A stretch of 20,000 nucleotides of DNA from Candidatus Hermodarchaeota archaeon. Its GTDB lineage: Archaea; Asgardarchaeota; Hermodarchaeia; Hermodarchaeales; Hermodarchaeaceae. The notes under the pieces were generated by a model. It was not told the origin of the DNA, searched no databases, and was given only the letters and a program-made list of their open reading frames with translations. Below, piece by piece: positions 1,118 to 17,185 of the stretch. The DNA is taken from contig JAEOTB010000037.1 of NCBI GenBank assembly GCA_016840065.1, positions 91,670 to 111,669 of the forward strand, read 5' to 3'. Numbering within the stretch: the stretch's first letter is position 1; the number at the start of each line of letters is the position of its first letter. Both the position numbers and the translations under genes were made by a program.

Positions 1118-3754
1118 CTACCTCTTTTGGCTTAGGACGCGTTCGATAATAGCGGCGAGGTTTACGGCTTTCCCATGGTCGCTTCGAGCAGGGTCCACAC
1201 CATCCTCTCCATACCTAAACTGGATGATAGTACCTTCCGAGTTTCGGACTGTTTCGTCATATTCGACCTTGATGTTCTGGAGTGCATTGATAAGGCGTCG
1301 CTGCATATAACCGCTAGTACTTGTTCTAACAGCTGTATCTACCAGTCCTTCCCGACCACCCATCGCATGAAAGAAAAATTCTACTGGGTCGAGTCCTCTA
1401 CGGTAGCTTGATTCAACGAAGCCACGGGCTTGGGGGCTTAGGTCGCCTGATTTGAAGTGTGGTAGTGTTCGTCCACGGTAGCCTCGAGAGATTCTTTTTC
1501 CACGTACTGCTTGCTGACCTACGCAAGCTGCCATTTGGGCAAGGTTGAGCGCGTTTCCTTTGGCACCTGTTGATGTCATTATTACTGCGTGCTTGTCTAG
1601 TCCTAGTTCCTGACCTGCCACTGCTCCTGCCCCATCCCGCGCCTTGGACAAGAGTTCCATCATTAGATTCTCAAAGGTCTCCTCTAGTGATAAACCAGGT
1701 GTTCTTTGTAGTTCATTTGCTCTAAAGGCTTGAATAAGTTTTAGCCCGTTTTCTTCTGCTTCTTTCAGGATGTCTTCAATTCGTCGGACAGCAGCAGATT
1801 CGAGAGTGACGTCGTCGATCCCCATGCTGAAACCGCTGTTAGTGATCAAGGTTACTAATAAGGGACACATCGAATCAAGAAACCGGCGAGCCTCACTGTT
1901 GCTATAGTCTTTGACAATTCGGTGCAGTACGCTATTAGGTTGAGCTGCACCAAAGGCTTTCTTGTCGATAACACCTGTAAGCAGCTGGCCATTCCTAATT
2001 AATACGAAACTGTCGTAGAGACACTCTTCCTCCTGGCAAACGTCGCATTTACGGCAAACACTTGCCTTCAGAGAGAGATTCAGTTCCTTGGGGAGCAACA
2101 TACTGAAAATCTGCTTTCCAGTCCACATTGGCTCTGGCTTTGTAACAGAGGGCTTTGGTAGGTCTTCTCGGTATCCTGCTGAAGCAAGTAACTGACAGGT
2201 CTGCGCCTTAGTGAAGAGAGTCCCCTTCCTTGTTAATAAGTAGGCAGATGAGATGTAGTCCTGAATCCCACCGATGATTGGTCCTCCATACCGAGGGCTA
2301 AGAATCTGCTCTTGAACAAGCATCAAGATACGTGATTCAGCACGAGCCTCCTCACCCTGAGGAACATGAAGGTTCATCTCATCTCCATCAAAATCAGCGT
2401 TATAGGGGGGGCAAACGCAAAGACTTAGCCTGAATGTTCGGTAAGGCATCACCTTTACTTCATGAGCCATGATTGACATTCTGTGTAGTGATGGTTGTCG
2501 ATTAAATAGAACAATGTCCCCAGTGCGAAGATGGCGTTCAATGATGTGTCCAGCATCAAGCCCATCTGCATTTGTTTTTCGGTCTTTAACAAATCGGAGG
2601 TCAATTCGTTTGCCATCTGGGCGTATGATGTAGTTGCACCCAGGATGTTCTTTTGGCCCTCGTAACACTAGTTGGCGCATATCCTCAATATTCCATTCAG
2701 TAACACGTTCAGGTACAGTCAGTATTTTTGATATCTCGAGCGGAACGCCAACTTCATTGATAGAAAGGTTGGGATCGGGGGATATGACTGTACGGGCTGA
2801 GAAGTCTACCCTCTTACCAGAGAGGTTGCTTCGGAACCGCCCCTCTTTACCTTTTAGGCGTTGAGCAAGTGTACGGAGTGCTCGACCAGACCTATGACGA
2901 GCGGGAGGAATCCCCGAGACCTCGTTATTGAAGTAAGTAGTAATGTGATACTGGAGGAGTTCCCATAGGTCTTCGACGATTAGTTGCGGTGCACCTGCTT
3001 CAATGTTTTCCCGGAGCCTCTGGTTAATGCGTATTACGTCGACTAGTTTATGTGTTAGGTCATCCTCGGATTTGACTCCTGATTCAAGTGTAATGGAGGG
3101 TCGAACTGCCACAGGGGGTACAGGTAGTACAACGAGAATCATCCACTCGGGACGTGATACACGAGTGTCTATTCCCATCAGGTAGCTATCTCCTTCTGGA
3201 ATCCGCTCTAGCCGGTCGCGAATATCTGTTGGTGTTAGCCGCACACTGCCCTCCATTTTTTCTTCGTAGAAGGTCGTTGGTTTCTCATACTTGACCTTAT
3301 ATTGTTCTGCTTCGCAGTGTGGACATGCTTTTGGTTTAGCTGCATCTTTAAGTACCGCATCAGCCAAATCTTGGTCTAATTGACCCGTTTTTTCGAAGAT
3401 TTCATCCATTTTTTGCTTATAGACAGGAAACAGCTCTAGCTTGAGCTTCAATCTAGCGCAACGTCTGCAGACCGATTTGAGGAATTTCTTGATTAACTTA
3501 GCAAAGCTTACATGCATGACTGGACGTGATAATTCGATGTGACCGAAGTGTCCTGGACAGTCTCCTACACGATTTCCACATGTGCTACAACGTTGCCCAG
3601 GCTCAATTGTTCCGAGCTTACGATCCATAAGACCAGAGGAAATTGGGAGCCCGTCCTCGTCGTATGTATCGGCTGTCACGATTTGTGTGACACTCATCTT
3701 GCGGATAATTTCTGGTGCAAGGAGTCCAAACCAAATGCTTCCTATTTTTTTCAA
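1118..3754 (-). CDS. rpoA1: DNA-directed RNA polymerase subunit A'
   Basis: 878 aa ORF with N-terminal zinc motif (CSTCGNRVGDCPGHFGHIEL) and the catalytic motif NADFDGDEMNLHVPQ. Confidence 0.98.
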   Translation of the reverse strand: MKKIGSIWFGLLAPEIIRKMSVTQIVTADTYDEDGLPISSGLMDRKLGTIEPGQRCSTCGNRVGDCPGHFGHIELSRPVMHVSFAKLIKKFLKSVCRRCARLKLKLELFPVYKQKMDEIFEKTGQLDQDLADAVLKDAAKPKACPHCEAEQYKVKYEKPTTFYEEKMEGSVRLTPTDIRDRLERIPEGDSYLMGIDTRVSRPEWMILVVLPVPPVAVRPSITLESGVKSEDDLTHKLVDVIRINQRLRENIEAGAPQLIVEDLWELLQYHITTYFNNEVSGIPPARHRSGRALRTLAQRLKGKEGRFRSNLSGKRVDFSARTVISPDPNLSINEVGVPLEISKILTVPERVTEWNIEDMRQLVLRGPKEHPGCNYIIRPDGKRIDLRFVKDRKTNADGLDAGHIIERHLRTGDIVLFNRQPSLHRMSIMAHEVKVMPYRTFRLSLCVCPPYNADFDGDEMNLHVPQGEEARAESRILMLVQEQILSPRYGGPIIGGIQDYISSAYLLTRKGTLFTKAQTCQLLASAGYREDLPKPSVTKPEPMWTGKQIFSMLLPKELNLSLKASVCRKCDVCQEEECLYDSFVLIRNGQLLTGVIDKKAFGAAQPNSVLHRIVKDYSNSEARRFLDSMCPLLVTLITNSGFSMGIDDVTLESAAVRRIEDILKEAEENGLKLIQAFRANELQRTPGLSLEETFENLMMELLSKARDGAGAVAGQELGLDKHAVIMTSTGAKGNALNLAQMAACVGQQAVRGKRISRGYRGRTLPHFKSGDLSPQARGFVESSYRRGLDPVEFFFHAMGGREGLVDTAVRTSTSGYMQRRLINALQNIKVEYDETVRNSEGTIIQFRYGEDGVDPARSDHGKAVNLAAIIERVLSQKR

Positions 3755-3780
3755 TCGGTATGATATTTTCTATTCCTCCT

Positions 3781-6700
3781 TCAAGTCCTATCAGCGAGTT
3801 TTAGCCTGGGCCATATCCCTAGGGAAATCAGTTCTTGCAGTACAAGTTTGAAGGCGTATGATATATTTACCTTACTTATTGCTGTGGTCCTAGGTGAGCA
3901 GACTGGACAACGGTGGCGGTCGCGGTTTCGATCATATTCTGCGAGCATTCCACACCCTTCACATACTGATGCAGTGTACTTGTCAGATTCCTCTAGGAGA
4001 CGTTCTCGGAGGAGAAGTGCAGCTCCGTGCCCAATAAGGCAGTCGCGCTCCATTTCGCCGAATCTGAGTCCTCCTTCCCTAGCTCGGCCCTCTGTTGGTT
4101 GTCGTGTAAGAATCTGTACGGGACCTCGTGCTCTAGCATGCATCTTATCAGCAACTAGGTGATGAAGTTTTTGATAGTAGATGACACCAATGAACAAGTC
4201 TACTTCATATTTTTGCCCTGTAATTCCATTGTACATAGTCTCTCGTCCGCTGTATTTGAAGCCTAGCTCGCGCATCTCTTTGAATAATTCTTGAACCTTA
4301 ATCCCTGAAAACGGAGTGCCATCTATCTTTTCACCCTTAAGGCAACCGATTTTCCCTCCAATAGATTCGAGGATTTGACCTAGCGTCATACGACTCGGGA
4401 AAGCATGAGCGTTAACAACAAGATCAGGAACCACTCCAGATTCAGTGAAAGGCATGTCCTCCTGGGGTGCTAGGAGCCCGATGACACCCTTTTGACCGTG
4501 ACGGCTAGCAAATTTATCTCCTAACTCTGGTATCCTCTCGTCTCGAACTTTTACCTTCACCAGACGATTGCCATCGATGTTCTCAGTGAAAACAACCTTG
4601 TCAATAGTTCCTCTTTCGCCGTGTCGAAGGCTGACTGATGTTTCTCGCCTCTTAGGTCCAGGTACTTCTAGTTCTGTGTACTCCTCAAGGAATCTAGGTG
4701 GGCTTGTCCGACCTATGACTATCTCGCCCCCCTTGATTTGGAATTCTGGCTCAATAATACCATCCTCACTCAGTAGACGATAGGATTCAGCGGCTCGATA
4801 TCCACGAACCTCCTTACTCGGAATCTCAAATTTATCCTCTTGCCCACCGGGATATTTACGCTCCTCGGCATCATAGCATCTAAAGAATGTTGATCGGCAA
4901 ATACCCCTTTCAACGGAGGCTTTGTTCATAACTAAAGCATCTTCAATGTTATAACCCTCAAAGCTATGGATTGCTACAACGAGGTTTTGCCCTGCAGGGC
5001 GCCGGTCAAAGCCTATTACCTCCATAGGTCGAGTGGTTACAATTGGACTCTGAACATAGTGAAGCAGATGGCTGCGCGTGTCAACCCGAAGCATAAAATT
5101 GGCGGAGTAAAGACCCAAAGCCTGTTTAGCCATACCTGCTTCGTAGGTATTTCTTGGGGACTGATTATGCTCAGCAAAAGGAACTAGACTCGCACAGATT
5201 CCTAACACGGCTTCAGGCACAAGTTCAAGGTGGGTATGATCTTCAGTGACGTCTTCTGGATTCATAGCAATTAGTGAATTCTCCTCTTCTTCAGCGTCTA
5301 GATACTCAAGGATGCCTGCTCTTACAAGATCATCCCAACTTAATTCTCGGTTACGAATTCTTTCCACATATTGCTTCTCCAGTAATGAAACGCCATCTTT
5401 CACTACGATGAGTGGTCGTCTTACACGACCTGCATCACAATTTACTTGAACCTCTTGTGTATCAGCGTAATAAGCGACATTCACTTCATCACTTAGTTCA
5501 CCCCTTCGCCGCCGATCGCGAAGCCGGGTGACTAGGAGTTCAGGGTTAGCATGAACCCCTATGAATCGACCATTCAAATAGACGTAGATACCTTTGCGGT
5601 CCTCCAAAGATGTGCCTTCTAGAGGTGATAGCTTCAGGGAGAGCAAAGCTTCCTCCACATCAGCTACATCTGAGCCCACAGAGATATACGCCATAAGTGC
5701 CAAGTTTTTCACTAGCCCACAATTTGGCCCCTCAGGAGTTTCTGCCGGACAAATTTTCCCCCAATGCGTCGGATGCAGGTCACGTGCTTCGAAATGTGGT
5801 TGGCTGCGGCTTAAAGGCGAAACAACGCGTCGTAGATGGCTTATTGATGACATGTAGTTAACTCTGTCGAGAAGTTGGCTGACTCCGGCTTTGCCACCAA
5901 CCCAGTTTCCTGTTGCTAGGGCGTGACGTAATCTCTCTGTGATTACATCAGCTCGTACTGCAGTTTTGATTACGGGTTTGCGGCCCCTTGTCGCTGTACG
6001 TTCAAGCTGGTATTTGATATCTCGGCAGAGATTGAGGAATGCAACACGGAAGAGGCTGGTGAGCAAATCTCCTGCTAGTTTAAGCCGCTTGTTTGCATAG
6101 TGGTCTTTATCGTCCTCTGCTCGCTTGTCCAAGGATAACTCGATGAGGCGTTGAGCCATTTGCCCCAAGTAGTGAGCCTTAGCTATCCCTGAACTTGATT
6201 CAGTACCGATATGTGGAAGTAGATATCTATTCAGAACCTGACCCGCTCGTCTTAGACGATAGTCCTTAGTTTGCCCAACCGCCACACGTTTTCCAATGTA
6301 GTCCAGTGCACTTTCACGTGTCGCCTCTGAATCACTCGGGATGACTAGAGATTCAGCGGCGTGAAAACTGGGAATCATCTCTTGCTGAATCGCCGGCTCA
6401 TCACTTACTGCACCAGCTATCTCTCGATCAGTCACCAGACCAAGAGCACGCATTAAAACAACAAGAGGTATCTTTCCTGGGACCGAGGGAAATGATACTC
6501 GGAAGGTGTGATCAGTGCGCCGCTCCATGGTTACGGGAGCTCGGAATCCTCTAGCAGTTGAGAAGACTTTTGTCATGTGTGTGCAGGAGCTACTGCTTGT
6601 CGCTTCCTCGATTAGGATACGATTTGGCGCCAAATCTTCTTGGGTGACTAGCACCCGCTCAGATCCGTTAATCACGAAGTAGCCACCCGGGTCGTTCGGA

Positions 6701-7143
6701 TCCTCACCAGCCTGAATCAATTCTTCAGGTGACATATGCGAGAGACAACAAAAGGAAGACTTGAGCATAATAGGTAGACGGCCAATATAGACCTTTGTTG
6801 TGTCCTTAGGATATTCCATCCCAGTTTTCTCATCTTTATCGATTGGGGTCATTTCAAGGTAAACTGGGGCTGAGTAAGTCAGGTTTCGAATACGTGCCTC
6901 CGAAGGCGTAATCTGTCGAATAGAGCCATCAGCCTCCCTAACAGAAGGATCCCTAATCTCAATCTTACCAATCTTGACATAGAAATTCGGGATATCAGGT
7001 TCGATCTTCCCGACATCACTAACGATTTGCTGAATACGCCGCTCTATGAGGTCGTTAAACGAATCGAGGTGCTGCCGGACGAGGCCCTTCGAAGCGAAGA
7101 AGGACTTCATTACTACCCATCTATCTTCTGAAGTGAGCGACAT
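3781..7143 (-). CDS. rpoB: DNA-directed RNA polymerase subunit B (unsplit)
   Basis: 1120 aa ORF with archaeal Rpo2 motifs: ETPEGPNCGLVKNLAL, GYNIEDALVMNKASVERG, KFASRHGQKGVIG, GGLRFGEMERDCLIGHGAA, and C-terminal zinc motif. Confidence 0.98.
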   Translation of the reverse strand: MSLTSEDRWVVMKSFFASKGLVRQHLDSFNDLIERRIQQIVSDVGKIEPDIPNFYVKIGKIEIRDPSVREADGSIRQITPSEARIRNLTYSAPVYLEMTPIDKDEKTGMEYPKDTTKVYIGRLPIMLKSSFCCLSHMSPEELIQAGEDPNDPGGYFVINGSERVLVTQEDLAPNRILIEEATSSSSCTHMTKVFSTARGFRAPVTMERRTDHTFRVSFPSVPGKIPLVVLMRALGLVTDREIAGAVSDEPAIQQEMIPSFHAAESLVIPSDSEATRESALDYIGKRVAVGQTKDYRLRRAGQVLNRYLLPHIGTESSSGIAKAHYLGQMAQRLIELSLDKRAEDDKDHYANKRLKLAGDLLTSLFRVAFLNLCRDIKYQLERTATRGRKPVIKTAVRADVITERLRHALATGNWVGGKAGVSQLLDRVNYMSSISHLRRVVSPLSRSQPHFEARDLHPTHWGKICPAETPEGPNCGLVKNLALMAYISVGSDVADVEEALLSLKLSPLEGTSLEDRKGIYVYLNGRFIGVHANPELLVTRLRDRRRRGELSDEVNVAYYADTQEVQVNCDAGRVRRPLIVVKDGVSLLEKQYVERIRNRELSWDDLVRAGILEYLDAEEEENSLIAMNPEDVTEDHTHLELVPEAVLGICASLVPFAEHNQSPRNTYEAGMAKQALGLYSANFMLRVDTRSHLLHYVQSPIVTTRPMEVIGFDRRPAGQNLVVAIHSFEGYNIEDALVMNKASVERGICRSTFFRCYDAEERKYPGGQEDKFEIPSKEVRGYRAAESYRLLSEDGIIEPEFQIKGGEIVIGRTSPPRFLEEYTELEVPGPKRRETSVSLRHGERGTIDKVVFTENIDGNRLVKVKVRDERIPELGDKFASRHGQKGVIGLLAPQEDMPFTESGVVPDLVVNAHAFPSRMTLGQILESIGGKIGCLKGEKIDGTPFSGIKVQELFKEMRELGFKYSGRETMYNGITGQKYEVDLFIGVIYYQKLHHLVADKMHARARGPVQILTRQPTEGRAREGGLRFGEMERDCLIGHGAALLLRERLLEESDKYTASVCEGCGMLAEYDRNRDRHRCPVCSPRTTAISKVNISYAFKLVLQELISLGIWPRLKLADRT

Positions 7144-7455
7144 AACATTCCTCCAATGACGGAAACCCAGTCTAATTTGACCAATACTCTGCTAGACGGT
7201 GAAAAGTATCCCTTGAACAAGGCATCGACAGCCCGCACGAGATGAAATGCCCTTGATGTTCTTGATTCGATGAACCTGTGTCTCACGTATATCTCCAGAT
7301 TATAAACATGCGGCGCCAACCAGCCATCGCTCAAGTGAACCCAAGCCAACCGCCTGCGGAGTTAATTTGCCAATGTACAAAGCCCTTTTAAAGATTTTGA
7401 ATCCCCGCGCCAAATGACAACAAAATAATGCGCATACACAGAGAATAAGAAGAAG

Positions 7456-7563
7456 TGGCGCCCGCACCGGGATTCGAACCCGGGTCCTAGGAGTGACAGT
7501 CCCAGATGATAGACCTGATTCTGCATTCTGGCAGTTATTGCCAAAATCCTACACTATACGGGC
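7456..7563 (-). tRNA. tRNA-Asp(GTC) with a D-loop intron; CCA encoded
   Basis: Acceptor GCCCGTA/TGCGGGC, anticodon arm TGGGA-CTGTCAC-TCCTA, T arm CCGGG-TTCGAAT-CCCGG, then G-CCA. About 30 extra nt lie between A14G15 and G18G19. Confidence 0.9.
7519..7548 (-). other. Candidate tRNA-Asp D-loop intron (~30 nt; ends uncertain by a few nt)
   Basis: GATTTTGGCAATAACTGCCAGAATGCAGAA contains the 9-bp hairpin ATTTTGGCA-ATAAC-TGCCAGAAT (one G-U). Removal gives a normal-length D arm. Confidence 0.75.
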
Positions 7564-7683
7564 TGCAATAGTTTGCTTTGGGTGTTTGGATAAAAAGCTT
7601 TCTCTGCTTAGTGTGCTACGCACTTGGATTAGTGGTGCTGGTCTAAGAAAAGTGGTGGTCCCGCCTCCCGGATTTGAACCAGG

Positions 7684-7712
7684 TTATGGGTCCTTGAAAT
7701 GCTCCAAGGACA
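7684..7712 (-). other. tRNA-Tyr intron 2 at variable loop/T-stem junction (29 nt)
   Basis: Strict BHB: outer helix ACCAG/CTGGT, central ATGG/CCAT, bulges TTT and AAC, inner helix GTCCTTG/CAAGGAC. Cleavage after the 2nd bulge nt gives variable loop TGGTT followed by T stem CCTGG. Confidence 0.9.
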
Positions 7713-7723
7713 AACCATCTGGT

Positions 7724-7777
7724 TACTGCCTTGACTGACACCACGTCATAACCCGGGGGGCTCAGGGTGCGAGTAAT
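7724..7777 (-). other. tRNA-Tyr intron 1, canonical position 37/38 (54 nt)
   Basis: Intron ATTACTC...GGCAGTA. Splicing gives anticodon loop CTGTAGA closed by TCTGG/CCAGA. Confidence 0.88.
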
Positions 7778-7883
7778 CTACAGCCAGACGCTCTACCGGA
7801 CTAAGCTAAGGCGGGTCCTTTTGGTTTGTTGCCTTCGTTGGTACATTCCTTTTAAGATTTTTCTAAGTGTTCGTTGGCGATTG

Positions 7884-8360
7884 TTACTTTGTTCCTGTGA
7901 TTGTTTTAACGATCTGGTCGGCTGCTTCTTGTATTGGGGGTGTGATTGGTTTGGCGAATTCTACGTTGAGAGGTTGGATTCCGAGGATGAGGATGATTGT
8001 TTCGATTTGGTTGAGGAGGTACTCGATGAAGAAGGTTAGGGGGAGTTGGTGGGTGGAAAATGCGACGCCACCTATGCTGTCCTTGTCTATCAGGCGGATG
8101 GTTCCTGGAGGTTCGTTCATTAGGGCAGCGTCTACGATTAGGGTGAGGGATGGTTTCATTTCGCAGAGTTGACTGATGAAGTTCTCTGGTACGGTGCTGG
8201 CGTTGATTAGTTCCACGTTTTCAGGAACTCTGTTTTGGAGCTGTTTTATTATGTGAGGACCAACACCGTCATCGGCTTTCAAGTCGTTTCCAACGCCTAG
8301 TATGACGGTGCGTGATGATTTCCTAAGCTCTCCTGTTAAGCGTTGTCTCCAAGACTCCAT
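7884..8360 (-). CDS. Hydrogenase maturation protease (HycI/HyaD-like)
   Basis: 158 aa; ILGVGNDLKADDGVGPHI is the hydrogenase maturation protease N-terminal motif, followed by VELINASTVPENF and LIVDAA. Confidence 0.85.
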   Translation of the reverse strand: MESWRQRLTGELRKSSRTVILGVGNDLKADDGVGPHIIKQLQNRVPENVELINASTVPENFISQLCEMKPSLTLIVDAALMNEPPGTIRLIDKDSIGGVAFSTHQLPLTFFIEYLLNQIETIILILGIQPLNVEFAKPITPPIQEAADQIVKTITGTK

Positions 8361-8439
8361 TTTGTGAGAAGAATTTATAATAAGTGATAAAGGTTGCTAT
8401 TCCTAGTAGCATCAACTGATCTGTTGAAGGGGTATACCA

Positions 8440-9045
8440 TTGGTAGATGAGCATCCACTGGAAGAAGTTTCTCTAGATGAAGATAAGGAAGAACCGCGCC
8501 CTCAGCTCCCAGAGGAACCTATAACAGCGAAGCTGTCCAGAGGACGTGTCGTAGTTAAGGGGGAGATGGCCCGTGTTCTATACGACGCTGGGCACTTTGG
8601 CACTTTGAAAAGTGAATTAGAACTCGTCTTAGAGGCTGAGGAAGCCCTCTTACTTATACGACGAAAGCGAATTCAGGTCTTTGACAGAAAAGGAACTGAA
8701 CTAGATTTCTCGGTGTTGCTTCAGATATTATCAGAACGCCACCCTAGATTATGGACGCAGTATCTTGTATACAGTGACCTTAGGAGCAGAGGTTATGTTG
8801 TCCGAACAGGCTATGGAAAAGGACTCTGGTTTCGCGTTTATCCACGGGGCGCCAAACTAAACGAGGCAACAGCGAAATATTTTGTGTGCGCCATATCAGA
8901 GGGTTCACCACTTAAAGTAGCAGAACTTGAGAAGCTTAGCAGTCTAGCGTTAAGGAACCGGAAAAAGCTGATGCTAGCTGTCTTGGATAGACAAGGTGAA
9001 ACAACCTACTATCTAGTTTCACACGCCGACATCACGGCAGACTAG
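8440..9045 (+). CDS. endA: tRNA-splicing endonuclease EndA-family protein, possibly a divergent or non-catalytic subunit
   Basis: 201 aa; YLVYSDLRSRGYVVRTGYGKGLWFRVYPRG and RNRKKLMLAVLDRQGETTYYLVS match the EndA catalytic domain (Tyr and Lys regions present), but the region that normally reads EEHSKYLVH is NEATAKYFV. Confidence 0.85.
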   Translation: MVDEHPLEEVSLDEDKEEPRPQLPEEPITAKLSRGRVVVKGEMARVLYDAGHFGTLKSELELVLEAEEALLLIRRKRIQVFDRKGTELDFSVLLQILSERHPRLWTQYLVYSDLRSRGYVVRTGYGKGLWFRVYPRGAKLNEATAKYFVCAISEGSPLKVAELEKLSSLALRNRKKLMLAVLDRQGETTYYLVSHADITAD

Positions 9046-9076
9046 ATAAAGGGAATAGGTGGCGGGCCCGCCGGGA

Positions 9077-9105
9077 AATTCAGCATACACGATTTGTATA
9101 GCGCG
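9077..9105 (-). other. tRNA-Arg T-loop intron (29 nt, position 59/60)
   Basis: Outer CCGGG/CCCGG, central TTCG/TGAA, bulges AAC and TTT, internal hairpin ATACA-AATCG-TGTAT. Excision gives T loop TTCGAAT. Confidence 0.85.
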
Positions 9106-9144
9106 TTCGAACCCGGGATTACTGGCTTAGGAGGCCAGCGCCTT

Positions 9145-9165
9145 CTTCGGGGTATCAGTGAACCA
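9145..9165 (-). other. tRNA-Arg D-loop intron (21 nt, position about 20a/21)
   Basis: TGGTTCACTGATACCCCGAAG; central helix TCGG/CCGA, bulges ATT and AGA. Excision gives D arm GCCAAGTCGGATAAGGC. Confidence 0.83.
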
Positions 9166-9233
9166 ATCCGACTTGGCCACGGGCCCTCGGAATCACCCTG
9201 TGCTAGAGGAAACACCTATTTCCATATTTCGCT

Positions 9234-9992: not shown

Positions 9993-10069
9993 TGGAGCCT
10001 CGGGCGGGATTCGAACCCGCGACCCTCGCCTTACCAAGGCGATGCGCTACCGAGCTATGCCACCGAGGC
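9993..10069 (-). tRNA. tRNA-Thr(GGT), intronless; CCA encoded
   Basis: 77 nt: GCCTCGG/CCGAGGC acceptor, anticodon arm TCGCC-TTGGTAA-GGCGA, T arm GCGGG-TTCGAAT-CCCGC, T-CCA. Confidence 0.96.
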
Positions 10070-10191: not shown

Positions 10192-10375
10192 TATGAGTCT
10201 GGCGCTCGAACCAGGCTAAGCTACCTCGGCGTTTCCCTATCCCTGATTCGTTCCTTTTAATTCTTATTCTCAGGACCGCTACCCCCATTCAGTGCTCGAA
10301 GCAGTTTTAAAGAGAAGGCTGTCTCATCATTGAATGCGGGGGCCCTTCAAGGGTCAGCGACCGCATGACAAGGCG

Positions 10376-10476
10376 GCGGGGGTTTCCAAGAGACCCTATA
10401 GCCAAGCCTGGTCAAAGGCGCAGGACTTAAGATCCTGTCTCGCAGGAGTTCCCGGGTTCGAAGCCCGGCCCCCGCA
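10376..10476 (+). tRNA. tRNA-Leu(TAA) with a 16-nt intron between positions 8 and 9; CCA not encoded
   Basis: Acceptor GCGGGGG/CCCCCGC, D arm GCCAAGCCTGGTCAAAGGC, anticodon arm CAGGA-CTTAAGA-TCCTG, long variable arm, T arm CCGGG-TTCGAAG-CCCGG. Spliced length is 85 nt. The exact 5' end is ambiguous because GCGGGGG is duplicated 40 bp upstream. Confidence 0.87.
10384..10399 (+). other. tRNA-Leu intron at 8/9 (16 nt)
   Basis: TTCCAAGAGACCCTAT; outer GGC/GCC, central GGGG/CCCT, bulges GTT and ATA. Excision gives T8-A9 before the D stem. Confidence 0.75.
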
Positions 10477-10545: not shown

Positions 10546-10651
10546 TGGAGCCTCGGGCGAGGATTGAACTCACGACCAGCAGCTTACAAGGTTCAACGTT
10601 ACCGGTTTGGTTTCCGGAAACTCTGTCGCTCTACCACTGAGCTACCGAGGC
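10546..10651 (-). tRNA. tRNA-Thr(TGT) with an intron in the anticodon stem; CCA encoded
   Basis: Acceptor GCCTCGG/CCGAGGC identical to tRNA-Thr(GGT), D arm GCTCAGTGGTAGAGC, spliced anticodon arm ACAGC-CTTGTAA-GCTGC (A27-C43 mismatch), T arm GTGAG-TTCAATC-CTCGC, T-CCA. Spliced length 75 nt. Confidence 0.87.
10592..10622 (-). other. tRNA-Thr(TGT) intron at 30/31 (31 nt)
   Basis: Outer GAG/CTT, central CGAC/GTTG, bulges AGA and AAC, inner GTTTCCGG/CCGGTAAC (one T-T mismatch). Confidence 0.8.
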
Positions 10652-10763: not shown

Positions 10764-10869
10764 GGGCTGGTGGTCTAGATTCCCAGAAGGATAGCCTTCT
10801 GGACTAGATTGGTATGATTCGCGGTTTGGGTCCGTGAGATCCCGGGTTCAAATCCCGGCCGGCCCACCA
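10764..10869 (+). tRNA. tRNA-Pro(TGG) with a D-loop intron; CCA encoded
   Basis: Acceptor GGGCTGG/CCGGCCC, D arm GTCTAGATTGGTATGAT after splicing, anticodon arm CGCGG-TTTGGGT-CCGTG, T arm CCGGG-TTCAAAT-CCCGG, A-CCA; spliced length 77 nt. Confidence 0.92.
10781..10809 (+). other. tRNA-Pro D-loop intron (29 nt; ends slide within a CTAGATT direct repeat)
   Basis: Perfect 8-bp hairpin CCAGAAGG-ATAG-CCTTCTGG flanked by CTAG/CTAG, with CTAGATT repeated at both junctions. Confidence 0.85.
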
Positions 10870-10946: not shown

Positions 10947-11065
10947 GGACGCGGTCATAGAAACTGGGTCACTCCCGGTCCCGTTCTGATCCCGGAAGAT
11001 AAGCCGGTTTCGTCTGTCCGAGTACTGATGTCCGAGAGGCTTCGGAAAAGGTCCGAACTGCGTCC
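10947..11065 (+). rRNA. rrf: 5S ribosomal RNA
   Basis: 119 nt; helix I GGACGCGGT/ACTGCGTCC closes the ends; conserved CATAG, ACTCCCGGTCCCGTTCTGATCCCGGAAGATAAGCC, GTACTG and GGAAAAGG segments match archaeal 5S rRNA. Confidence 0.92.
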
Positions 11066-11074
11066 ATTTCTTCT

Positions 11075-15308: not shown

Positions 15309-15728
15309 ATGCCAACCACACGCAATGCATCGTCAGTAATGCAAAAATTACTAGAAGAGGGTTTTAGGAATGGTGTTGCGTTACTGGTGGAATTATCGAA
15401 GAATGGAGTAGTGGTTATTGTGGAGGGTCAAAAGGATGTGATATCCTTAAGGCATTTGGGACTAACAGGACCAATTATTCCTCTTGCAGGGCATAGTGTG
15501 CTCACACTAGCGGAAATGCTTGCAGGGAATGCTCAAGTTTTGATACTTTTCGACTTTGATACTCGGGGCGAGCAACTTACTAGATTATTAATTTCGCAAT
15601 TACACGGAACAGGGACGAGAGTACATCATGATTTTCGTAGGAAACTAAAGAAAGCGTTCAGTTGGCAATCCAGAGTAATCGAAGGATTAAGACCCCTAAA
15701 TAGGGATACAAACACCACAAAGTTTTAA
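15309..15728 (+). CDS. Small Toprim-domain protein
   Basis: 139 aa; VVIVEGQKDVISLRHLGLTGPIIPLAG and VLILFDFDTRGEQLTRLL, the E and DxD Toprim motifs. Confidence 0.85.
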   Translation: MPTTRNASSVMQKLLEEGFRNGVALLVELSKNGVVVIVEGQKDVISLRHLGLTGPIIPLAGHSVLTLAEMLAGNAQVLILFDFDTRGEQLTRLLISQLHGTGTRVHHDFRRKLKKAFSWQSRVIEGLRPLNRDTNTTKF

Positions 15729-15882: not shown

Positions 15883-17185
15883 ATGAACTTGGGTTCAAGT
15901 ACGCCTAGTAGTGCTACTACAAAGTATGAAATCCGATGTAAAATAGAAATTAGCGGAGTTGTTGAGACTCCAGATGTCGTTGGAGCGCTCTTTGGTCAAA
16001 CAGAGGGCCTACACTTCATGATACGCGTTTCATGAAGGGGTAATCGGTGAAGATTTAGATCTGAGAGAACTGCAGCAGTCTGGACGAATAGGTCGAATAA
16101 AGGTTGAACTACACTCAGAGGGAGGAAAATCCCGCGGAATAATAGTAATCCCTTGCAGCCTTGACCGTACTGAAACAGCCATTCTTGCAGCGGCATTGGA
16201 GACAGTTGACAGAGTTGGACCGTGTTCAGCGAAAATCACTCTGGAGAAGGTTGAAGATGTCCGTGACTCTAAACGCAAACAGATTATTGATCGAGCTGTG
16301 GCTTTACTGCGTGTATGGGAGGGTGAAACCTCTCCAGGGGCACAGGAGATAACCGATAAAGTTACACGTGAAACGAAGACAGCAGAAATCACTCGATTTA
16401 ATGGGCTTCCTGCGGGTCCTTCTGTTCAAGAATCAGATACAATAATCGTCGTAGAAGGGAGGGCTGATGTCCTCGCATTGCTCCGAGCAGGAATAAAGAA
16501 CGTTGTTGCAGTTGAGGGTACCAGTATTCCTCCTTCCATCATAAAACTAGCAAAAACAAAAACGATTATTGCCTTCCTTGACGGCGATAGGGGTGGCGAC
16601 TTGATTCTTAAAGAATTGTCTCAGGTTACAGATATCAAGTTTGTAGCGCGAGCGCCAGCGGGACGTGAGGTTGAAGAACTTACAACAAAGGAGATAACCA
16701 AAGCTCTTAGAAATAAAGTGCCTGCATCCCAGGTTGTTGGACGGATAAAACGAGGGGTAAGCGAGTCGGCAACAACAAGAGCCTCTTCAACTCCAAAACG
16801 CAGAACTCGCCGAACAACACAGAAAACAACTGCACCGCGGCGAACTGCAACCCGTTCTAAGACCACGACCAGAAGTGTTACACGACCAAAAAGTGGAAGC
16901 ATCCCTAAACCGATTCGAGAATTAGCTGAGAAAATACAAGAGACAATGACTGCAATGATACTCGATAAGGATAAGAAGGTCTTGAAAGAAGTTCATGTCG
17001 CAGAACTGGCTTCAATGCTGCAAGAAATAGAAAAAGCGAAAACAATCATTCTCGATGGTGTAATCACTCAGCGACTGGTAGACATCGCTGGTGAACGTGG
17101 AGTGACCCTAATCATAGGCGCGAGAACCGGTAAAATTGTAAAGAGACCCGTGAAAATCAAGATACACACATTCAACGATTTATGA
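15883..17185 (+). CDS. dnaG: Archaeal DnaG-type primase, interrupted by a 31-nt intron-like insertion (exon 1 15883-16012, exon 2 16044-17185)
   Basis: Exon 1: [43 protein letters not shown]; exon 2: (L)[60 protein letters not shown]...[26 protein letters not shown]...[13 protein letters not shown]. Joined exons total 1272 nt = 424 codons, in frame. The ORF track only shows the 3' part from 16196. Confidence 0.88.
16013..16043 (+). other. Candidate protein-gene BHB intron in dnaG (31 nt)
   Basis: ACTTCATGATACGCGTTTCATGAAGGGGTAA; inner 8-bp helix CTTCATGA/TCATGAAG, central GCCT/GGGT (2 G-U), bulges ACA and AAT. Outer helix is weak. Excision gives GGC CTA C|TC GGT = G-L-L-G. Confidence 0.8.

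Follow-up and report, generated by a model that had tools for sequence, protein, structure and literature searches.

A histidine-less EndA homologue encoded among interrupted tRNA genes of a Hermodarchaeota archaeon, a probable structural subunit of the tRNA-splicing endonuclease

The EndA locus and its interrupted tRNA genes

We analysed a 20,000-nt stretch of archaeal DNA with a GC content of 44-52%, hereafter the window, in which the gene for an EndA homologue lies among tRNA genes. In addition to the genes for two RNA polymerase subunits, the window contains hycI, the genes for ribose-5-phosphate isomerase, tyrosyl-tRNA synthetase and DnaG, a 5S rRNA gene and a tRNA gene cluster. The features at and around the EndA gene are as follows.

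1118-7143, minus strand: genes for RNA polymerase subunits B and A'
7659-7815, minus strand: tRNA gene with insertions of 57 nt (anticodon loop) and 31 nt (before the T arm); Rfam RF00005, 40 bits
8440-9045, plus strand: coding sequence of the EndA homologue, 201 aa, TTG start, TAG stop; the proposed structural β subunit
9060-9186, minus strand: tRNA-Arg(CCU) gene, starting 15 nt past the EndA stop codon, with non-canonical insertions in its D region and its T loop; read from the sequence
About 10374-10475, plus strand: tRNA-like gene, apparently interrupted near the acceptor stem or in the D loop; read by eye only
10549-10651, minus strand: tRNA gene interrupted once, by about 31 nt at the anticodon loop; Rfam RF00005, 45.5 bits
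About 10764-10869, plus strand: tRNA-like gene, apparently interrupted near the acceptor stem or in the D loop; read by eye only
10947-11066, plus strand: stand-alone 5S rRNA gene, after the tRNA cluster; Rfam, 69.6 bits

Seven tRNA or tRNA-like genes are found within 3.5 kb around the EndA gene (7456-7532, 7659-7815, 9060-9186, 9993-10069, 10374-10475, 10549-10651 and 10764-10869), and at least five of the seven are interrupted. Most of the interruptions fall at sites that are not canonical, namely in the D region, T loop or variable region or after the acceptor stem. When ARAGORN was run on the unedited sequence, only the uninterrupted Asp-GUC and Thr-GGU tRNAs were called. The tRNA-Arg(CCU) was called only once a D-region segment and a T-loop segment had been removed, and Tyr(GUA) was the most frequent call for the gene at 7659-7815 after removal of its insertions. 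A first-pass annotation, made from the sequence, had described the EndA gene as lying next to multi-intron tRNAs, and this description holds, with two segments interrupting the tRNA-Arg(CCU) gene, two insertions in the gene at 7659-7815 and one in that at 10549-10651. Hermodarchaeota is an Asgard phylum, and multiple, non-canonical tRNA introns have been reported in very large numbers from other Asgard genomes. The transcript of the tRNA-Arg(CCU) gene is likely to be a substrate of the endonuclease. Because the neighbouring tRNA genes carry non-canonical introns, several of them within 2.5 kb, an active EndA of broad specificity must exist in the organism. The protein encoded in the window is unlikely to be this active enzyme, because the catalytic histidine is missing from it, as set out below.

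The gene order rpoB - hycI - EndA - tRNA - rpiA - DUF1512 - ... - tyrS - dnaG was kept in all loci examined. In two of the related loci (L003, 12264-13674, and L004, 11387-12797), rpiA and the DUF1512 gene are separated by a NUDIX gene and a LAGLIDADG-type open reading frame, neither of which is present in the window. In L003, rpoB was called as two open reading frames (5422-8784; 948 and 151 aa), as against one of 1120 aa in the window. An Rfam search of the 20,000-nt window found no 16S or 23S rRNA gene. Towards the other end of the window, the open reading frame at 16196-17185 on the plus strand covers only positions 82-419 of the archaeal DnaG model. With the DnaG of L003 as query, tblastn extended the homology across an in-frame stop codon as far upstream as 15992, so the first part of DnaG lies outside the same open frame. 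The gene may be interrupted; an intron, as the first-pass annotation had suspected, a frameshift or a mis-called start are possible explanations. We rejected the open reading frame at 15309-15728 as a DnaG exon, as it encodes a separate small Toprim protein of the PRK04017 family. The layout of short open reading frames upstream of DnaG recurs in L002-L004.

In a collection of species-representative genomes, the EndA family of the window was found in 16 genomes. The closest homologues, with 85-88% identity, come from metagenome-assembled genomes (MAGs) of Hermodarchaeota, and the rest from Thorarchaeota or unclassified Promethearchaeota; the homologues that carry names belong to MAGs of Thorarchaeota and 'Promethearchaeota'. 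For the alignments described below, we assembled from public data a family set of 74 close homologues with 61-100% identity, from Hermod- and Thorarchaeota MAGs.

Domain architecture and the replaced catalytic histidine

The window protein consists of an acidic extension, which M. jannaschii EndA lacks, followed by the two domains of an EndA protein. Its parts, and the codons of the residues discussed below, are as follows.

8440-8520, plus strand: acidic N-terminal extension, residues 1-27; pLDDT 46-51 for residues 1-20, variable in the family alignment
8524-8712, plus strand: EndA N-terminal domain, residues 29-91 (PF02778)
8749-9009, plus strand: EndA C-terminal ('catalytic') domain fold, residues 104-190 (PF01974); nearly invariant across the family
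8839-8841, plus strand: Tyr134 codon TAT; aligns with M. jannaschii Tyr115, Tyr in 74/74 family members
8869-8871, plus strand: Thr144 codon ACA; aligns with the catalytic His125, Thr in 73/74 and Ser in 1/74 family members
8962-8964, plus strand: Lys175 codon AAA; aligns with Lys156, Lys in 74/74 family members
8986-9000, plus strand: acidic loop of the L10 type, D183-R-Q-G-E187, with the terminal strand T-T-Y-Y-L-V after it; invariant in the family alignment

With the Pfam gathering scores as cut-offs, PF02778 matched residues 29-91 (E = 9.6e-11; 41.5 bits, cut-off 21) and PF01974 matched residues 104-190 (E = 6.4e-19; 68.3 bits, cut-off 27), the latter over positions 1-85 of the 85 positions of the profile. 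An AlphaFold2 model of the protein has a mean pLDDT of 86.9, with disorder limited to the first 20 or so residues, and its top Foldseek match is M. jannaschii EndA (1a79; TM 0.88, E = 4e-16). By both domains and by its fold, the protein belongs to the EndA/tRNA-intron endonuclease superfamily. In an alignment to 1a79 and to the α subunit of S. tokodaii, its N-terminal domain lacks a long L1/CSL-type insertion after the G-x-F/Y-G motif; S. tokodaii α has an extra loop in this domain, whereas 1a79 and the window protein do not. Strands are predicted in the model at residues 176-182 and 188-193, and T189, Y190 and Y191 are conserved in the family, which would leave a C-terminal strand available for β9-β9' pairing.

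The catalytic triad of M. jannaschii EndA is numbered Tyr115/His125/Lys156 (Mitchell 2009, PMC2761253). The window protein was aligned to this enzyme (1a79) by phmmer with an E value of 6.9e-22 and 34% identity, and the alignment runs without gaps from the Tyr to the following strand (FRVYPRGAKLNEATAKYFV in the window protein versus FRLYERGANIDKEHSVYLV in 1a79). The first-pass annotation had inferred the loss of the catalytic His from the motifs FRVYPRG, NEATAKYFV and RNRKKLMLAVLD. All three are present, and the inference was borne out: T144 falls on the column of His125, which is His in 44 of the 44 catalytic homologues aligned. Thr144 sits inside an almost invariant pseudo-active-site stretch, FRVYPRGAKLNEATAKYFVCAISEG. 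We rejected a sequencing error at this position, since ACA is at least two substitutions away from CAY and so does not arise from it by a single-base error, and since Thr is conserved across the family. A nearby His that fills the catalytic position, which the same annotation had proposed to look for, did not turn up: the family alignment has no conserved His column, and the highest count (17 of 74) is at residue 101, far from the site.

The histidine is not the only residue lost. In a single alignment of 52 family members and 44 His-bearing homologues, R168 and K126, each present in 44/44 of the His-bearing proteins, are replaced in the family, as are H130 and H150, each of which is His in 38/44. 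Position 168, which is Ser in the window protein and Lys in 36 of the 52 family members, lies seven residues ahead of the catalytic Lys and aligns with A. fulgidus R280, reportedly one of the two bulge-binding arginines that hold the flipped base between them. Measured against a catalytic EndA unit (tRNA-intron lyase, EC 4.6.1.16), then, the protein keeps the Tyr and the Lys and lacks the His and the conserved Arg.

By contrast with these losses, the acidic L10 loop is retained. L10 is conserved in the structural subunits of (αβ)2 enzymes and degenerate in their catalytic subunits (Mitchell 2009, PMC2761253; Yoshinari 2009), and the negatively charged loop docks into the opposing catalytic subunit (Mitchell 2009, PMC2761253).

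The loss of the catalytic His and of other residues found in catalytic homologues would also be seen in a decaying, functionless paralogue, that is, a pseudogene in the making. We give this reading almost no weight. The dN/dS of the gene is 0.06-0.09 in comparisons with its three closest orthologues; the EndA homologue is therefore a functional gene, and such purifying selection effectively refutes decay. The open reading frame is moreover unbroken across 74 protein clusters and in 16 genomes, synteny is conserved, and 65 columns of the family alignment are invariant.

Relatives of the protein among EndA units

An exhaustive HMMER search of 1.84 billion protein representatives returned 747 relatives, and we analysed the best 150 of these 747. 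Among these 150, the canonical His motif is absent from 83 of 85 single-unit proteins. In the two-unit relatives, which are of the α'2 type, the N-terminal unit is the better match to the window protein in 57 of 61; this unit never has the His, which is present in the C-terminal unit in 60 of the 61. The nearest relatives outside the family, again among the best 150, are His-less proteins of Helarchaeota and Lokiarchaeota. We obtained 147 His-less units from these 150 relatives, of which 108 keep the Tyr and 121 the Lys. The position of the His is hypervariable in them (P 41, A 22, V 12, S 12, E 10, T 8, and others), and the L10 pattern D-x-x-G-[DE] is retained across them. Since most of these units keep Tyr and Lys and have lost His, this is the normal state of a structural unit and no peculiarity of the window gene.

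The best NCBIfam match agrees with this picture: it is to an α'2 EndA model of 350 positions, NF006795, of which positions 2-166, the N-terminal half, are matched with 111.6 bits. The generic endA equivalog TIGR00324 was passed (68.5 versus a cut-off of 59.6). The crenarchaeal NCBIfam models named 'tRNA-splicing endonuclease subunit beta' failed, NF007085 with 23 versus a cut-off of 157 and NF007086 with 32.2 versus 101. By sequence and by fold, solved catalytic subunits (1a79, 2cv8 and 3p1z_B) outscore solved crenarchaeal β subunits. These scores, and the failure of the β models next to the generic model that was passed, count against the structural reading proposed below.

The known α'2 enzymes of the A. 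fulgidus type are thus the source of the best-scoring model, that of their N-terminal repeat (NF006795), and α'2 N-terminal units resemble the window protein in that the His is missing whereas Tyr, Lys and L10 are mostly kept. An α'2 enzyme is, however, a fusion of two units with about 300-390 aa, whereas the window protein is a free-standing single unit of 201 aa. No catalytic repeat is fused to it, as the stop codon at 9045 is succeeded by a tRNA gene on the opposite strand; we therefore rejected a truncated α'2 gene, there being no EndA unit downstream.

The structural subunits known from (αβ)2 enzymes are NEQ261 of N. equitans (3IEY_B/3IF0), the β subunit of A. pernix (3P1Z_A) and the EndA-like protein of M. 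kandleri (5X89, N-terminal part). They share with the window protein the EndA fold, an incomplete triad and a conserved acidic L10. As with these β subunits, it would be encoded apart from its catalytic subunit, and its lineage has many non-canonical tRNA introns. The N. equitans match is better for NEQ261 (E = 5.9e-9) than for the catalytic NEQ205 (6.6e-4), whereas the sequence kinship to crenarchaeal β proteins is only distant (E about 2e-4). The β subunit of P. aerophilum lacks an N-terminal domain (Hirata 2019), which is complete in the window protein. The window protein differs from the known β subunits in keeping Tyr and Lys and in its 27-residue acidic N-terminal tail.

Among solved structures the α4 enzyme of M. 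jannaschii (1A79) is the best match and is alike in length, domain order and L10 loop; its His125, however, is Thr in the window protein, and conserved Arg, Lys and His residues are replaced too. In the eukaryotic TSEN heterotetramer, the catalytic Sen2 and Sen34 pair with Sen54 and Sen15, which have the EndA fold and are non-catalytic. TSEN chains occur among the Foldseek matches and Sen54 gave weak sequence matches (E 0.15-0.2), a very remote similarity. Taken by its own features, namely an incomplete triad, an acidic L10, a C-terminal strand and closest relatives that are non-catalytic, the window protein has the make-up of a structural unit.

Two groups of His-bearing proteins were noted in the course of this comparison. 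The P0257 family (P0257 and P0351-P0353; 259-291 aa, NCBI/ENA) is β-like overall, with the motif SYRLYPRG and the L10 loop DRVGD, and carries, besides Tyr and Lys, a His in the catalytic position (GESHATNIV); these proteins are either structural-type units that kept or regained a full triad, or carry the His by chance. The P0327, P0364-P0392 and P0076 families comprise many single-unit His-bearing EndAs with a Lys/Arg-rich insertion of 8-12 residues directly before the catalytic His, for example RGVRPKKGVRAPWEHAKY; they retain the acidic L10 and are therefore α4-like. Of the specific loops described for EndA, L1 and L2 lie close to the catalytic His and L3 is part of the C-terminal region; α4 enzymes with L3 occur in DPANN and Hadesarchaea (Kaneta 2018).

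A proposed structural subunit and its alternatives

We conclude that the window gene very probably encodes a non-catalytic structural (β) subunit of an (αβ)2 EndA in an Asgard archaeon of the Hermod-/Thorarchaeota type. The first-pass annotation had suggested a structural subunit of a heteromeric EndA, and we favour the same reading on the grounds of the His-less relatives, the invariant L10, the further residue losses and the (αβ)2 EndA with an L1 loop in α that has been reported for Asgard archaea, Thorarchaeota SMTZ1-83 included (Kaneta 2018). The (αβ)2 type, together with specific loops in α, has been associated with the cleavage of non-canonical introns (Kaneta 2018).

By analogy with the characterised enzymes, the C-terminal strand of β would pair with that of a separately encoded catalytic α subunit to give an αβ dimer. 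The acidic L10 of β (D183-E187) would then insert into a basic pocket of α in a second dimer, and this docking may set the two α active sites at the spacing needed for cutting both bulges of the bulge-helix-bulge (BHB) motif. The β subunit itself would make no cut.

We infer that an α partner is encoded in this genome, that the two subunits assemble into a heterotetramer and that the window protein is inactive. Searches with phmmer and hmmsearch on six-frame open reading frames found exactly one EndA gene in the window and in each of 20 related loci. No catalytic α partner turned up, either in the window or across some 300 kb of related loci, which counts against the proposed reading. A word-indexed protein search seeded with the β sequence returned only β proteins. 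What argues for an α subunit in the clade is the literature and the need to splice the neighbouring tRNAs. Two candidates for the partner were rejected. P0076 is a Nanohaloarchaea EndA. P0327, the His-bearing single-unit protein most similar to the window protein, belongs to an α4-like family with an insertion beside the His, an intact acidic L10 and no Asgard names: its named relatives are from Aenigmatarchaeota, Thermoplasmatota and Hydrothermarchaeales. Its locus (L141, GCA_053530055.1) has a GC content of 51% and only moderate tetranucleotide similarity to the window.

That no second EndA gene was found in the window and across some 300 kb of related loci would fit a protein that is an active endonuclease by itself, as a homotetramer or homodimer, with Thr144, water or another group as the proton donor and no need for α; so would the two triad residues that are retained, and the full two-domain architecture and acidic L10 as in α4 enzymes. 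This corresponds to the active enzyme with an altered general acid that the first-pass annotation had put forward as a second option, and we consider it very unlikely. Chemically, Thr can neither stack on the bulge base nor serve as a proton donor at neutral pH. The His has been described as the general acid, which also positions the scissile phosphate by stacking on a bulge base (Mitchell 2009, PMC2761253). The losses at R168, K126, H130 and H150 speak against stand-alone activity as well, as does kinship: among the best 150 of 747 relatives, the closest are almost all structural units beside a His-bearing unit. An αβ type has, moreover, been reported for a Thorarchaeota genome (Kaneta 2018).

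An alternative closer to the proposed β subunit is that the protein is a structural subunit whose pseudo-active site (Tyr134, Lys175 and Thr144) still works, for example by binding extra RNA of relaxed or closely spaced BHB motifs, and so adds specificity for multi-intron pre-tRNAs. The conserved stretch FRVYPRGAKLNEATAKYFVCAISEG and the kept Tyr134 and Lys175 leave room for a residual RNA-binding or catalytic role, which counts against a purely structural reading. Around the former active site, the C-terminal domain hardly varies in alignments of 52-74 sequences, most structural units keep Tyr and Lys, and the gene is surrounded by multi-intron tRNAs. High conservation is, however, expected anyway at 61-88% identity; the equivalent of the bulge-binding Arg (R168) and other residues of catalytic homologues are gone; and the broad specificity of solved (αβ)2 and α'2 enzymes has been attributed to loops in their catalytic units (Kaneta 2018). 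We therefore regard a working pseudo-active site as improbable. The stronger claim that the Tyr134/Thr144/Lys175 pocket is a working second RNA site, which binds RNA or slowly cleaves it without a histidine, is more improbable still. If it were true, four pockets rather than two would handle the dense non-canonical introns of Asgard tRNAs, and in the extreme case the window protein would be the sole EndA of the clade.

A β scaffold subunit is an expected part of an enzyme type already reported in this lineage, and the missing His is thus genuine but unremarkable. It bears on annotation: the His-less homologues P0005, P0020, P0040 and P0041 are named 'tRNA-intron lyase' in NCBI records, because His-less proteins pass the TIGR00324 endA cut-off, and this label is probably an over-annotation of a non-catalytic subunit. 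Pathway reconstructions could consequently count His-less proteins as the catalytic enzyme, wrongly. The Asgard β proteins, which are closest to the structural repeat of α'2 enzymes and keep Tyr and Lys, also add a small data point on the sub-functionalisation of EndA in the line leading to the eukaryotic Sen2/Sen34/Sen54/Sen15 complex.
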